Positions 4,287 through 23,893 of a DNA stretch of 64,000 nucleotides are shown here, piece by piece. The stretch lies in contig CAVTRY010000018.1 in assembly GCA_963737265.1 (NCBI GenBank), positions 32,001 to 96,000 of the forward strand, given 5' to 3'. The stretch comes from an uncultured delta proteobacterium. GTDB lineage: Bacteria > Myxococcota_A > Polyangia > Fen-1088. The notes below the pieces were generated by a model, which did no database searches, had not been told where the DNA came from, and saw only the letters and a program-made list of their open reading frames with translations. The position numbers and the translations under genes are program-made. The stretch's first letter is position 1, and each line of letters starts with the position of its first letter.

Positions 4287-5153
4287 CTAGAAGGTAAGTC
4301 CAAGACCGCCGCCGCCGGGGAAGAAAAACAGCGAGACTGGCGCCTTGCTTTCATCGATGGGCCTGCTGTATCCAACCAGACCGTCGATGACGCCGTAGAC
4401 ATAGGTTGCCGTGAAAACGCCCACGGCAATCCAGTTCGTCGTCTTCAGTCCCATCGCGACGTCGTAACCGTGGCGATACAAATCGCCGTGCTGATGCCAG
4501 GACCGCAGCAGCAGCAACGACGTGGAGGAGGTGGCGAGCGAGACGACGCCCACGCTGAGGATCCCCCAGCCTTTGACGTTGTCGTCGTTCTTGAATTGTC
4601 CGACCGGAGGCAAGAAATTCCAGTAGGGATGCCGATCGGAGCGCTGGCGCACCAGATGTTGGTGGCGCAGGCTTTCGAAGAACTCGACCAGCTCGGGTCG
4701 AGTGGTGGTTGGGTCGAGTCGCGCTTTGGGATCCTTGCGCAGAAGCTCGGTGAAGGCCGTTTCTGCTCCCAGCGGACGGTTGGTCAGGTATAGGCCGATG
4801 CCCAGCAGGCGGAAGGCCTGTGTCTGTTCTTCGGGAGAAGCAGGCAGAAGGCCCTCGGCCACGGGACGGGCTGCTTCGACGACCTGGTTCATGTCGCCAT
4901 ATTCGTAAGCGGCAACTGCCCGAACCAGGGCAGCGGAAGCGTCCTTGGGCAGGCTATTCGGCGTTTGCGTCGACGGAGCCTTTTGCGCTGCTGGCTCGCC
5001 GTCGTCGGTGTCGAGCGAAATCTCGGGATGCAAGGAATTTCCGGTTGCCGGTGTTCCCCTGGGCGCCGGGGTTTCCTTGGCCAGCAGTGGGGCCGGGTAG
5101 GCGAGGCACACCAGGGCAGCTAGGACCACGGCCGTATGGGATGCTCCTCTCAT
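4287..5153 (-). CDS. Secreted/membrane TPR-like protein
   Basis: Signal peptide, helical TPR-like segment, C-terminal hydrophobic helices ending GGGGLGLTF. Confidence 0.65.
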   Translation of the reverse strand: MRGASHTAVVLAALVCLAYPAPLLAKETPAPRGTPATGNSLHPEISLDTDDGEPAAQKAPSTQTPNSLPKDASAALVRAVAAYEYGDMNQVVEAARPVAEGLLPASPEEQTQAFRLLGIGLYLTNRPLGAETAFTELLRKDPKARLDPTTTRPELVEFFESLRHQHLVRQRSDRHPYWNFLPPVGQFKNDDNVKGWGILSVGVVSLATSSTSLLLLRSWHQHGDLYRHGYDVAMGLKTTNWIAVGVFTATYVYGVIDGLVGYSRPIDESKAPVSLFFFPGGGGLGLTF

Positions 5154-21349: not shown

Positions 21350-22216
21350 CTAGACGGCGATCGCGAAGGCAATCTTGGGATGGTGCCGGTACCCTTCCAC
21401 GCGCGTTTGCTCGTAGCTCCAGGAGAAGATGTCGCGCGCCCCTCCCGTGACGATGATGGGCAGCGGGTAGGGATCGCGTTGCAGCTGAAGTTGCATGCCC
21501 TCGACGTGGTTGACGTAGACGTGCGTGTCGGCCAGAAAGCCCACCAGGCGCCCTTCCGCAAGCCCCGATTCGCGGGCAAGCAGGTGAAGCAGCAAGGCGT
21601 AGCTCGCGATGTTGAAGGGCAAGCCTAGCGCGACGTCGACGCTGCGTTGGTTCCACATCAAGTTCACCTTGCCGTCGAGAACGGTCACCTGGAACCCGTA
21701 GTGGCAGGGCGGAAGCGCCATGCGGTGAAAATCGACTGGGTTCCACGCCGAGACCAGCATCCGCCGATCCTCCGGATTGGATTTGAGCCTTTCGACGAGG
21801 TTCCGCAGTTGATCGATTCCCTGCCCGCGCGGAGGCTGGTCGTGCGCAACGTACTCGGCACCGAAGTGGCGCCACTGCCAACCGTAGATCGGCCCAAGCT
21901 CGCGCTCTGCCATCATTTTGGCGCGGGTTTCGTCGTCGTGCCCGTAGGGCACGCGCTCGGGACTGCACCACTCGTCCCAGATGTGGTTGTTTCGAGAACG
22001 CAGCCACTCCTTGTCGGTGATCCCTCTGATGAAGAACTCCAGCTCCGAAGCGACCAGGCGAAACGGCACCGACTTGGTCGTCAGCAGGGGAAAGCCGGCC
22101 CCGAGATCGTGCTCGAAGATGGCCCCGGGCAGCGTCAGCGCCTCGACGCCGGTGCGGTTTGGCTTCTTGACCCCCTGATCGAGGATTCGGCGGGCGATGT
22201 CCAGGTAGGCTTGCAT
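21350..22216 (-). CDS. thyA: Thymidylate synthase
   Basis: FPLLTTK, LGPIYGWQWR, ALPPCH, QRSVDVALGLPFNIASY, HVYVNH. Confidence 0.97.
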   Translation of the reverse strand: MQAYLDIARRILDQGVKKPNRTGVEALTLPGAIFEHDLGAGFPLLTTKSVPFRLVASELEFFIRGITDKEWLRSRNNHIWDEWCSPERVPYGHDDETRAKMMAERELGPIYGWQWRHFGAEYVAHDQPPRGQGIDQLRNLVERLKSNPEDRRMLVSAWNPVDFHRMALPPCHYGFQVTVLDGKVNLMWNQRSVDVALGLPFNIASYALLLHLLARESGLAEGRLVGFLADTHVYVNHVEGMQLQLQRDPYPLPIIVTGGARDIFSWSYEQTRVEGYRHHPKIAFAIAV

Positions 22217-22235
22217 GAGCGTTTCCTGCCCCTTC

Positions 22236-22808
22236 CTAGCGCCGGGGGCGGACATCGTCTACCCCAACTCGTCGCCACGCGTAGTCTCGGCGATGTAGAA
22301 GCGATGTCGACGGGTGCTTCCCTGAAATGGGGGCTGGGGCTTCACCTCGCCCCGCGCAGGTGGGATCGGAGGGAAAAACAGGGAGGAACGGAGGACCAGA
22401 GGAATCACGGGTTGGGTTGACGAGGCGGCGGAGACCCTCGCGAAGTACGGGGACGTGGAAATTGACGAGCAGGCCCACCGGCAGTCGTAGGAGCTTGAGA
22501 TAGGTAATGACCTGTGCCAAGTGGACAGGAAGCAACTGCTCTACCGCCTTGACTTCGACGACCAAACGGCCTTCCACCATGAGGTCGAGGCGATAGCCGC
22601 AGTCGAGGTCAATGCCTTTGTACTGCAGAGGAATCGCGACCTGACGTTGCGTGCGAAATCCACGCAGGCCTAGCTCGCGCGCCAGGCAGTGCTCGTAGGC
22701 CGACTCAAGCAGCCCGGGACCGAGGTGACGGTGGACTTCGATGCAGGCGGCGATAATTTGCCCAGTAAAGTCATCCTGTCTCTGTTTCTCCGTTCCTCGC
22801 TGTTCCAT
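22236..22808 (-). CDS. GxxExxY protein (PD-(D/E)XK-like nuclease family)
   Basis: EVHRHLGPGLLESAYE, YRLDLMVEGRLVVEVKAVE, HLAQVITYLK, GLLVNF; reading frame continues past the conserved end. Confidence 0.93.
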   Translation of the reverse strand: MEQRGTEKQRQDDFTGQIIAACIEVHRHLGPGLLESAYEHCLARELGLRGFRTQRQVAIPLQYKGIDLDCGYRLDLMVEGRLVVEVKAVEQLLPVHLAQVITYLKLLRLPVGLLVNFHVPVLREGLRRLVNPTRDSSGPPFLPVFPSDPTCAGRGEAPAPISGKHPSTSLLHRRDYAWRRVGVDDVRPRR

Positions 22809-22890
22809 ATCTGCGTTTTCGGCGGCACTCCGCCAGAAGTTGCTACCTCACCGAGCCCCCGGCTGGGGCCCCCGTTTCAGGGAGGCACCC
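22312..22890. mobile_element. 579-bp TIR-bounded element with 9-bp target-site duplication carrying a GxxExxY gene
   Basis: Left TIR GGGTGCTTCCCTGAAATGGGGGC (22312-22334) matches the reverse complement of 22868-22890 at 21/23; GATGTCGAC at 22303-22311 and 22891-22899. Confidence 0.85.
22377..22804. repeat. Inner 25-bp inverted repeat pair bracketing the GxxExxY domain
   Basis: AACAGGGAGGAACGGAGGACCAGAG (22377-22401) versus reverse complement of 22780-22804 AACAGCGAGGAACGGAGAAACAGAG, 22/25. Confidence 0.85.
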
Positions 22891-23056
22891 GATGTCGACG
22901 GCAAGCTTGACGACGCAGCGATAAGAAGCATAGCTTCTGCGCCTAGAGACCAAGAATGACTGCGGGAAATGGCTAAATAGCCGGTTGTCGTGTCCGGCTT
23001 CTGGTTGACGGTTCCCCTCCTTTTTGATGGCTCCCAAGAGAAAGGAAACAAACGTG

Positions 23057-23893
23057 ATGACTAGAGCGCTTACAGGTACTGCCCTTGCCCTATTTCTCGT
23101 GGCCTGCGGCAGCAGTGGCAGCAGCACAAGCAACGGCAAGGACGGCGGCGGCACGAGCAGAATGGATGGCGACAGCACGAGCAGCATAGACAGCACCACC
23201 GACACGATCGACAGCGCCACCAGCAGCATCGACGGCGCCACCGGCAGCATCGACAGCGCCACCGGCAGCATCGACAGCGCCACCGGCAGTATCGACGGCG
23301 CCACCGGCAGCATCGACGGCGCCACCGGCAGCATCGACAGCGCCACGGGTGGCATCGACAGCGCGAGCAGCATCGACAGCGCCATGAGCAGCATCGACAG
23401 CGGCGTCGGCAGCACCGACAGCGCCATCGGCAGCACCGACAGCGCCAACGGCAGCACCGACAGCGGCAGCACGCTACTCGGAGGCTGCCCTGACCTCTCT
23501 GGCGTGTACAATGTAACAACGGAGATTGTAAGCACGACCTGCCCCCTGGGATTGCACGTCATCACGCAGCCAATAACCTGGACGTTCGTACAGACTGCAC
23601 CGAGCTGTAATTTCACCATGACCAATTCCCTGTACCCAACCTCGCTTTATGCGGGACAATTCAGCATGGTCGGGACCCAGGCTAGGGTGACTTGGACCTC
23701 GGCGACCCCTGCTCCCATCGTTAGCGGCTACGCCCTGACGTACACGGCAGAGAGTCTCACGATCACGCGCGCGGTGGCGCCAGCGACGGCGACGCTTTCA
23801 GGCAGCTTTGATTGGAACAGTGCCTATCCTTGCTCCGGCACTACGAACGTCTGCAGCGGCAGCGTTGCCTCGGGTTGCCTCACGCCCAACTAG
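23057..23893 (+). CDS. Lipoprotein with heptapeptide repeat linker and Cys-containing C-terminal domain
   Basis: AAGGA RBS, lipobox LVAC, about 14 SIDSATG-like units. Confidence 0.8.
   Translation: MTRALTGTALALFLVACGSSGSSTSNGKDGGGTSRMDGDSTSSIDSTTDTIDSATSSIDGATGSIDSATGSIDSATGSIDGATGSIDGATGSIDSATGGIDSASSIDSAMSSIDSGVGSTDSAIGSTDSANGSTDSGSTLLGGCPDLSGVYNVTTEIVSTTCPLGLHVITQPITWTFVQTAPSCNFTMTNSLYPTSLYAGQFSMVGTQARVTWTSATPAPIVSGYALTYTAESLTITRAVAPATATLSGSFDWNSAYPCSGTTNVCSGSVASGCLTPN
23183..23470 (+). repeat. Coding 21-bp tandem repeat, about 14 units
   Basis: Consensus AGCATCGACAGCGCCACCGGC. Confidence 0.95.

Follow-up and report, generated by a model that had tools for sequence, protein, structure and literature searches.

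A multicopy 579-bp insertion cassette with a GxxExxY nuclease gene as cargo, probably moved in trans by an ISKra4-family insertion sequence

Mobile insertion cassettes, of which MIC231 of Bacillus cereus is one, and MITEs are the described elements that come closest to the one reported here. As defined by the ISfinder group, they carry the terminal repeats of an insertion sequence (IS), a target duplication of the length produced by that IS and no transposase, and these features are all found in our element. Both also have a single passenger gene, occur in many copies and share their genome with a related intact IS. The differences lie in the partner, which belongs to the ISKra4 family, in the cargo, a PD-(D/E)XK nuclease gene with an inverted-repeat bracket of its own, and in the numbers, 39 copies where the IS has just one. 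Within the limited literature listings on ISKra4 and on mobile insertion cassettes, no report of such a cassette for the ISKra4 family was found. Concerning the ISs themselves, the available part of one source places ISKra4 in the same Mutator-like superfamily as IS256, gives p-MULT elements 18-39-bp repeats with a terminal C and 8-9-bp duplications, and describes several ISKra4-group members whose insertions share one orientation and lie 13-17 bp upstream of sigmaA promoters (PMC3942029).

In the window, that is the whole stretch of 64,000 nucleotides that was analysed (C18:32001-96000), comparison of copies across the genome delimits the mobile insertion cassette at positions 22312 to 22890. 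It is bordered on both sides by the 9-bp target-site duplication GATGTCGAC (22303-22311 and 22891-22899), and the direct repeat reaches 12 nt when the bases shared with the element ends are included (22302-22313 / 22890-22901). The left terminal inverted repeat, GGGTGCTTCCCTGAAATGGGGGC (22312-22334, plus strand), is the end facing the targeted promoter; the right one reads inward as GGGTGCCTCCCTGAAACGGGGGC (22868-22890, minus strand). They are identical at 21 of 23 positions and can be extended to 24 nt at 92%. The element ends are GGG...CCC, with a repeat of 23-24 nt and a terminal C. Outside the element, thyA (thymidylate synthase; 21350-22255, minus strand; TIGR03284 with 282.6 bits, cut-off 108) is found downstream of the left end, in the same orientation as the GxxExxY gene. 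The latter, a GxxExxY / PDDEXK_3 coding region for amino acids 1-129 (22422-22808, minus strand), is the sole family-matched ORF of the 579 bp in profile searches, and no transposase domain (DDE, serine, tyrosine or HUH) was detected within the element by ORF and profile searches. Neither a multicopy IS nor an ISKra4 homologue was found inside the window. The initial annotation had described a TIR element with a 9-bp duplication at 22303-22899 and GxxExxY as its only gene; its coordinates, its 21/23 repeats and the gene content are confirmed, and with 39 copies the case goes far beyond chance and is stronger than had been claimed. The description as transposase-free holds for the element itself and fails for the genome, where contig C20 holds an ISKra4-family IS.

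The 6.55-Mb genome (a bin of 25 contigs, with a completeness of 99.5% and an estimated contamination of 7.6%) contains ~ 39 copies of the element, 31 full-length and eight partial, which are 93-100% identical. The homology of the 31 full-length copies stops precisely at 22312 and 22890. Four of them, including the one in the window, are at 100% identity, 26 at 98% or more, one at 97% and four below 95%; the four 100% identical copies indicate recent activity. A perfect 9-bp target duplication is present at 30 of the 31, with a different sequence at every one, and the lone copy without it is an old one (93% identical) in which the repeat has decayed. Thirty different targets, each with a 9-bp duplication, are not what characterises a homing endonuclease gene, namely one specific site and no duplication. 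The copies are spread over 12 contigs, C20 among them, and their flanks are unrelated in nearly all cases. Two copies, C14:364642 and C14:367410, have 250 bp of identical left flank, one copy being located within a segmental duplication. Furthermore, the filled site C14:364642-365220 has three paralogous empty counterparts with one target copy (C14:444914-444984, 449596-449666 and 441327-441397). Other copies and an empty allele had been named earlier as a test of mobility; both additional copies and empty paralogous sites exist, and the 579-bp element is mobile in this genome. The orthologous empty site that had been suggested upstream of thyA did not appear: the 412-bp left flank gave just one 35-nt match in 12 genomes of the genus. 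These relatives are therefore too diverged, and the paralogous empty sites were used.

Outside this genome, contigs from four soil-metagenome runs of one study cover the element only (22312-22890), and their loose ends match other insertion sites of this same genome; the runs may be the source sample. No RNA run appeared among the sequencing runs listed for this DNA. No end-to-end match to the element DNA was obtained in the 60 relatives searched; this form was seen only in the genome that holds the C20 IS (60 relatives, with the transposase searched in the 12 other genomes of the genus). Among 185,579 species genomes scanned, the repeat pattern turned up a single time, as a solitary copy (L050, in G018) with no second end and no transposase within 1.5 kb.

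The right repeat was searched in the whole genome with up to 4 mismatches. Out of 75 matches, 73 fall in element copies and the other two are exactly both ends of one IS on C20, each matching at 19 of 23 positions. This resident IS (2,120 bp, single copy, G000:C20:66979-69098, equal to L049:501-2620) has a 9-bp duplication, GGAAAGCGG, and an ORF of 466 aa (L049:648-2048) that matches the ISKra4 family transposase profile NF033572 with 256.9 bits (cut-off 205). Compared with the left end of the element, its ends match at 17 of 23 positions, and between themselves they show 5 differences in 23; beyond the terminal repeats, BLAST within the genome showed no similarity between IS and element. The left repeat, searched with up to 5 mismatches, gave no partner and one unrelated match, the partner having surfaced through shorter motifs and the right repeat. 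Of the 12 further genomes in the genus, 11 gave no match to the C20-type transposase at E ≤ 1e-20, and the twelfth (G010) has a distant homologue at ~ 30% identity. A second ISKra4-like IS of 1,782 bp is present in 11 copies, with 9-bp duplications at five of seven full copies. Its ends begin with GGGTG and its 576-aa protein matches NF033572 at E 3e-52; with the element repeat it has only the first 5 nt in common, and its transposase is 33% identical to that of C20.

ISs with exactly fitting ends were found in metagenomes and not in this assembly. Eleven metagenome contigs fit the repeat pattern of the element, and on four of them two inverted repeat copies placed 2.0-2.15 kb apart flank a transposase gene that is 73-74% identical to the one of C20 (in three of them as a 463-aa ORF, in L113 as two pieces). 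On a fifth contig a fragment of this gene is present, and GxxExxY is found on none of the eleven. The match to the element reaches past the terminal repeat, as L109 matches element positions 1-54 at 92.7% while L107 and L112 match 1-54 and 1-48 respectively. Judged from these alignments, homology to an ISKra4-family IS end extends over the initial ~ 54 nt of the element. At the metagenome IS copies with both flanks visible (L106 and L111) a clean 9-bp duplication is absent, which may be due to assembly across repeats.

The insertion sites were compared from the element outward. On the left side, positions 17-21 have the consensus TTGAC, placed 16 bp from the end; TTGACA is matched at four or more of six positions in 11 of 30 copies at this exact place, compared to 2.9% of random sites, and the observed mean match was not reached in any of 20,000 random draws, each of 30 sites. 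The right flank displays no -35-like signal. The hexamer at this 16-bp spacing is TCGACA for the C20 IS, and TTGACT and TTGACG for two metagenome IS ends. Only about a third of the insertions have a clear -35 box at 16 bp. At the window copy the usual place holds no TTGACA-like hexamer (0 of 6 positions match), and a promoter scan of 22100-23100 returned no sigma-70-like site. In its 9-bp duplication, its 23-bp repeats with a terminal C and its oriented 16-bp insertion, the element matches the ISKra4/p-MULT features given in the available part of the literature (PMC3942029). Compared with the ISKra4-group ISs (p-MULT 4, Mutator-like DDE) and the promoter-targeting TnGBS/ISLre2 elements, as far as that source presents them (PMC3942029), the element also shares the unequal left and right repeats and the insertion in one orientation 16 bp upstream of -35 boxes. 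Unlike the ISKra4-group ISs, it has no transposase gene and only the ends in common with them, and the ends of the resident IS are diverged (19/23). The earlier proposal of an IS256, IS4 or IS1 origin was hence close, given the superfamily that ISKra4 shares with IS256 according to the same partial source (PMC3942029).

The cargo protein matches PF13366 at E 7e-41 (139.7 bits, cut-off 22) and TIGR04256 with 141.5 bits (cut-off 35). Its ORF runs on the minus strand from 22808 to 22236 (190 aa) and exits the element through the left repeat; since no stop codon is present inside the element, the open frame continues to 22236. The initial annotation had missed this feature, as well as the second, inner inverted repeat. 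The motifs of the window protein are G32xxE35xxY38, D75 and E85-x-K87; across an alignment of 19 sequences G32, Y38, D75 and E85 do not vary and E35 hardly does, K87 being present in the window protein. The AlphaFold2 model (pLDDT 94.7) folds as a restriction-endonuclease-like domain. A PDB sequence search gave no match at E up to 1, PADLOC and PHROGs gave none, and Foldseek gave none at E ≤ 0.001, its best being at 0.038 (Cas4, Hjc, splicing endonuclease). With VIA-align the best Z is 7.4 (R.SwaI and other restriction-fold proteins), which corresponds to a generic PD-(D/E)XK fold with no specific relative. TnsA is not among the Foldseek and VIA-align matches listed, an absence that proves nothing either way. 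Rfam matches, looked for as a sign of rRNA intervening-sequence context, occur at none of 20 loci. In the accessible portions of the literature on GxxExxY / PDDEXK_3 (PF13366/TIGR04256), no report on function or mobility was found. The window protein thus shares with its family the profile match, the motifs and the fold; its setting inside IS ends in ~ 39 copies differs from the 19 other genomes of the phylum that were sampled, which have 1-9 matches each and, in most, dissimilar copies and no burst.

Between species the gene is under purifying selection, with dN/dS of 0.13-0.39. Within the genome, only 13 of the 31 copies have the uninterrupted domain of the reference type and 14 are broken. 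Eight copies at eight different sites share a 1-nt deletion at element position 200, five copies share a deletion at position 110 and three an insertion at 211. Frameshifted copies have therefore spread to new sites, and the GxxExxY ORF is not needed in cis. We propose that this cargo, neither a transposase nor needed in cis, has its own function and is retained by selection for it.

Inside the terminal repeats, a second inverted repeat brackets the GxxExxY coding region. One arm (22377-22401; 25 nt, 88%) is downstream of the GxxExxY domain and the other (22780-22804) lies over the first codons of the gene (MEQRGTEKQR); in the predicted RNA fold both arms pair. This inner repeat is kept in the relatives G005, G009, G003 and G004, with no visible covariation, the arms being too conserved in this lineage. 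In a phylum-wide sample of 19 GxxExxY genes, 13 had long bracket repeats of 21-55 nt, with differing sequences. Three of 20 genomes in the family have a bracketed cassette, with TTCACCACAGAG/CTCTGTGGTGAA as its terminal repeats, exactly between comM and recA; it is absent from the other 17, one of the same genus among them. In G003 and G004 the same GxxExxY core lies within a different outer repeat, and in G069 it adjoins an apparent transposase relic in a multicopy unit. The flanks of GxxExxY homologues had been suggested as a place to look for the TIRs and duplication of the element; the genes of G005 and G009 and a second paralogue in the genome itself lack them. It is conceivable, though we think it unlikely, that a GxxExxY gene with its own bracket is a selfish insertion module needing no transposase, whose nuclease would act on a hairpin or cruciform of the bracket and which was captured here between ISKra4 ends, gaining a second and much faster way to spread. 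The inner bracket is the more novel lead.

Taken together, the 579-bp unit is very probably a non-autonomous mobile insertion cassette, MITE-like with a passenger gene, of an ISKra4-family (Mutator-like, p-MULT 4) IS and moved in trans. IS ends would make up ~ 50 bp at its left margin and ~ 25-40 bp at its right, enclosing a ~ 490-bp GxxExxY gene cassette with its inner inverted repeat. An ISKra4-family DDE transposase made elsewhere would bind the 23-bp terminal repeats and insert the element by a 9-bp staggered cut, preferably 16 bp upstream of sigma-70-type -35 boxes, leaving the left end to face the promoter. Between the two possibilities left by the initial annotation, a MITE moved in trans with a GxxExxY cassette is retained and spread driven by GxxExxY is not, since TIRs of the same type are found on an autonomous ISKra4-family DDE IS. 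That the copies arose with no transposon, through segmental duplication, gene conversion or assembly artefact, has next to no probability: one copy does lie in a segmental duplication and the genome is a bin with some estimated contamination, but 30 different 9-bp duplications adjoin sharp identical ends, the flanks are unrelated at nearly all copies, paralogous empty sites exist and the copies are found on 12 contigs. TnsA of Tn7 is a PD-(D/E)XK nuclease that forms part of the transposase, and it resembles GxxExxY as a restriction-endonuclease-fold nuclease encoded within a transposon. This likeness would apply only if GxxExxY were itself the transposase or an essential subunit, making the element a new class of minimal transposon, which we regard as very improbable. 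GxxExxY is indeed the sole gene inside, its catalytic-type residues are intact, at least 13 intact copies could serve the broken ones in trans and the accessible literature holds no function for the family. Moreover, the purifying selection between species, which counts against the preferred reading, leaves room for a role in helping the element. However, its repeats, the length of its duplication and its oriented insertion close to promoters are traits of ISKra4-family DDE elements, and the autonomous relatives with exact ends have a transposase and, unlike the Tn7 case, no GxxExxY (0 of 11 contigs). GxxExxY genes in G005, G009 and the second paralogue are also found apart from these repeats and duplications, and most genomes with the family hold few and dissimilar copies instead of a burst. 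PD-(D/E)XK nucleases cleave DNA but have no known strand-transfer activity.

As regards the source of the transposase for the cassette moved in trans, the C20 IS (G000:C20:66979-69098), rather than a lost closer relative, is the most likely one. What counts against it is that its ends are similar to those of the element and not identical (19/23 right, 17/23 left). Such a deviation at 4-6 of 23 positions would fit another driver, either an exact-end IS that was lost or is missing from the assembly, or the 11-copy 1,782-bp IS; we give this a minor but appreciable probability. Exact-end ISs do exist in metagenome contigs, the assembly is in 25 contigs, and the 1,782-bp IS matches NF033572 and makes 9-bp duplications (5/7 full copies). 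On the other hand, neither an exact nor a partial end was found outside element copies or at contig ends, in a genome 99.5% complete. The 1,782-bp IS shares just the first 5 nt of the repeat and has a transposase 33% identical to that of C20, and, with four copies at 100% identity, a working transposase should still be present or have been lost very recently.

The element hence belongs to an established type of hitchhiker, and the nuclease gene that it carries is an unusual cargo. It offers a clear natural case in which one rare IS has probably driven a burst of ~ 39 cargo-bearing hitchhikers, and with it the promoter targeting seen in the ISKra4 group now includes an element that is non-autonomous. 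Copies land just upstream of promoters with an open frame pointing outward, and may rewire the expression of many genes in a soil bacterium. For the GxxExxY family, which is large and widespread, three handles are gained: selection maintains the gene even when a transposon carries it, it has a conserved inverted-repeat bracket, and it is present or absent at a fixed intergenic site. With these, the substrate of the nuclease becomes a directly testable question.

The 579-bp element lies at 22312-22890 of the window and, on inspection of the sequence, has the same 9 bp, GATGTCGAC, on both sides (22303-22311 and 22891-22899), with 23-nt terminal inverted repeats that agree at 21 of 23 positions. 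Its GxxExxY/PDDEXK_3 gene is a minus-strand ORF running from 22808 to 22236 (190 aa, domain at residues 13-129), recognized by PF13366 (E 7e-41) and by TIGR04256 (141.5 bits for a cut-off of 35). Repeats, target duplication and cargo are as the initial annotation had described them from the sequence. Two further features had gone unnoticed there: the GxxExxY frame meets no stop inside the element and exits through the left terminal repeat, and a 25-nt inner inverted repeat of 88% agreement (22377-22401 and 22780-22804) brackets the coding region, one arm overlapping the first codons of the gene. Downstream of the element come thyA and then a gene for dihydrofolate reductase. Also in the window, at 23024-23893, is an ORF whose start resembles that of a lipoprotein and which contains a run of 21-nt tandem repeats encoding (S/G)IDSATG-type units.

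BLAST of the 579 bp against the source genome (6.55 Mb, 25 contigs, completeness 99.5%, contamination 7.6%) gave 44 pieces, which represent 31 full-length and 8 partial copies spread over 12 contigs. The identity of the full-length copies is 100% in 4, at least 98% in 26, 97% in 1 and 93-94.5% in 4, and homology ends exactly at the boundaries 22312 and 22890 in all 31. Perfect 9-bp direct repeats, all different, surround 30 of them, the exception being an old copy. Moreover, one copy sits in a repeated sequence of which three other paralogues are uninterrupted and hold the 9 bp once each, as expected for empty sites. The mobility suspected earlier is borne out by these copies, duplications and paralogous sites: the element is a real mobile unit that was active recently. 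A head-to-tail pair of copies at C17:62354-63520 has a single 9-bp target, CCGTGGCGC, between its members and the same 9 bp on both outer sides. Among the partial copies, two are interrupted by an IS4-like IS of 1,429 bp with an 11-bp duplication (C23:162554-164571 and C20:14118-16133); at C13:547670-548445 and C20:7328-8008, one copy is split by a 188-bp insert, with ends similar to an ISAs1-like IS of the genome, and one by a 117-bp insert. Element copies thus act as insertion targets themselves. The remaining partial copies comprise three that are truncated and one with an internal deletion.

Element DNA was matched in 11 of 60 relatives and end-to-end in none, hence the form with terminal repeats and duplications is seen only in the IS-bearing source genome. 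Two relatives, G005 (91% identity) and G009 (81-82%), retain only positions ~57-539 of the element, that is, the gene and the inner repeat; one G009 copy also retains 11 nt of the right end. In two others, G003 and G004, derivatives of ~190 bp with an internal deletion, which joins positions 44-125 to 400-513, are numerous (L023, L024, L034, L038, L039, L043 and L044). These are enclosed by a different outer inverted repeat of ~30 nt, of the GGGAACCCTGAGAGGGCACCCCTTTCAAGGT type, and show no obvious target duplication.

The repeat inventory of the source genome displays IS21-like, IS4-like, ISAs1-like and other IS families. Its sole multicopy IS with 9-bp duplications is a 1,782-bp unit encoding a 576-aa ISKra4-like protein (NF033572 E 3e-52, below the family cut-off), which has only GGGTG in common with the element ends. 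This IS lies at C2:48037-49818 (L048) and in about 10 further copies, with GGGTGGGTTGCACGGG as its ends and 9-bp duplications in five of seven full copies. Shortening the end motifs used as queries revealed another IS, 2,120 bp long and present once, at C20:66979-69098, with the ends GGGTGCCTAACCGAAACGGGGGA and GGGTGCCTACCTAAACCGGGGGT and the 9-bp duplication GGAAAGCGG in its flanks. It encodes a 466-aa transposase of the ISKra4 family (256.9 bits with NF033572 for a cut-off of 205, profile positions 24-422 of 422). A further, 141-aa ORF (L049:2058-2483, in the extracted IS locus) matched nothing in Pfam, NCBIfam, PADLOC or PHROGs. At up to four mismatches the right repeat of the element hits the genome 75 times, 73 of them in element copies and two at the ends of the C20 IS. 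These two ends differ from each other (5/23 mismatches) more than either does from the right end of the element (4/23). Contig C20 bears element copies too, hence IS and element share one bin. Of the 60 relatives, three have a C20-type transposase (E 1e-20 or better), and only that of G058, from another family of the class, is close (60-72% over parts).

Scanning a metagenome collection with the repeat pattern of the element matched 11 contigs, none of which contains GxxExxY. Four of them have the pattern twice, in inverted orientation and at a distance of 1,999-2,148 bp, and between the two copies a transposase gene that shares 73-74% identity with that of C20 (a 463-aa ORF in three contigs, two pieces in L113); on a fifth contig, part of this gene is left. 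L109 is similar to the element over positions 1-54 (92.7%), L107 over 1-54 and L112 over 1-48. Since ends that agree exactly with the element's pattern occur on relatives of the IS, with similarity reaching position 54, the outer parts of the element are IS ends. No clean 9-bp duplication was seen on L106 and L111, where both flanks are visible, which is either real or an effect of assembly across repeats. In another genus, genome G018 has a lone exact 23-nt copy of the left repeat at a gene end (L031; L050 position 4563-4585), and within 1.5 kb of it there is neither a second end nor a transposase nor GxxExxY.

The initial annotation had left two readings: GxxExxY takes part in its own spread, or the unit is a MITE mobilised in trans with a passenger gene, as the same repeats on an autonomous DDE IS would indicate. 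The metagenome ISs carry those repeats, in favour of the second. The state of the cargo gene bears on the first. Among the 31 copies the domain is uninterrupted and of reference type in 13, open but altered in 3, broken in 14 and unresolved in 1. A 1-nt deletion at position 200, in a CC pair and not a long run, is common to eight copies at eight different sites, a deletion at 110 to five and an insertion at 211 to three; frameshifts common to copies at different sites imply that broken lineages went on transposing, a pattern to which gene conversion among copies could add. The GxxExxY gene is dispensable in cis, and it is very unlikely to encode the transposase of the element. We class the element as a mobile insertion cassette belonging to an IS of the ISKra4 family.

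The cargo gene is nevertheless not junk. Between species it is under purifying selection, with dN/dS of 0.13-0.22 in pairs of G000 (the source genome), G005 and G009 (dS about 0.55-0.66) and 0.39 in the closest pair. Across a 19-sequence alignment, G32, Y38, D75 and E85 never change and E35 is nearly invariant, and the AlphaFold2 model based on it (pLDDT 94.7) shows a restriction-endonuclease-like fold. Neither Foldseek (best E 0.038) nor VIA-align (best Z 7.4) pointed to a specific relative among solved structures.

Bracketed GxxExxY genes are found elsewhere as well. The only other paralogue of the source genome (C22:198320-198770, 60% identical) is likewise bracketed, by a 33-nt repeat of its own, and in other genomes of the phylum (L076-L102) a repeat of 21-55 nt encloses the gene in 13 of 19 testable cases. 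These repeats are well above shuffled controls, vary in sequence from gene to gene, often consist of short tandem units and place one arm at, or shortly upstream of, the start codon. The paralogue is located between a comM-like gene and recA, as a cassette with its own terminal repeats at the boundary, TTCACCACAGAG/CTCTGTGGTGAA, which precisely fills the gap from the comM-like stop codon to the recA ribosome-binding site. Of the family's 20 genomes, three have a bracketed cassette at this spot (L127 in G000, L128 in G216, L129 in G005), the three proteins being just 62-72% identical, and it is absent in 17 (L135 in G012 and 16 others), one of the same genus as the source genome. In G069, a ~697-bp multicopy unit (L083, L099, L117-L120; 95-99% identity among three copies, one tandem occurrence) has GxxExxY directly behind the putative C-terminal end of a candidate transposase ORF. 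Furthermore, the sense-strand RNA of the element is predicted to fold with its two ends paired (z = -4.4), and 0 of 100 shuffles fold equally well. Together, these observations hint that the bracketed cassette may form an independent module, but not at how such a module would move. Our literature searches turned up no paper on the function or mobility of GxxExxY, PDDEXK_3 or PF13366/TIGR04256, and neither a paper on nor an explanation for the bracket.

According to PMC3942029, ISKra4 is one of three lineages of the p-MULT 4 Mutator-like DDE transposases, p-MULT elements have 18-39 bp repeats with a terminal C and duplications of 8 or 9 bp, and several ISKra4-group members land 13-17 bp upstream of sigmaA promoters, oriented by repeat asymmetry. 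On independent, mechanistic grounds too, the element resembles that group in its 23-nt repeats, its 9-bp duplication and a promoter-proximal signal in its left flank. When the 30 left flanks that could be used are read outward along the complementary strand, they show a TTGAC consensus at positions 17-21 (15, 14, 21, 11 and 15 of 30) and an A/T-rich -10-like signal ~17 bp beyond it; the right flanks show nothing comparable. At that exact place 11/30 copies share at least 4 of the 6 bases of TTGACA, against 2.9% of random genomic hexamers, and TTGAC is exact in 6/30; when 30 sites were drawn at random 20,000 times, the observed mean of 2.77 matches was never reached. The same distance holds TCGACA at the C20 IS and TTGACT and TTGACG at two metagenome IS ends. 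The window copy has 0/6 matches there, and a simple promoter scan of its region was likewise empty. Over the copies, the preference of the element for insertion near promoters is well documented.

The element belongs with the mobile insertion cassettes, as the concept is described in PMC3129680; its GxxExxY cargo is unusual, and its preference for promoter-proximal insertion is well documented.
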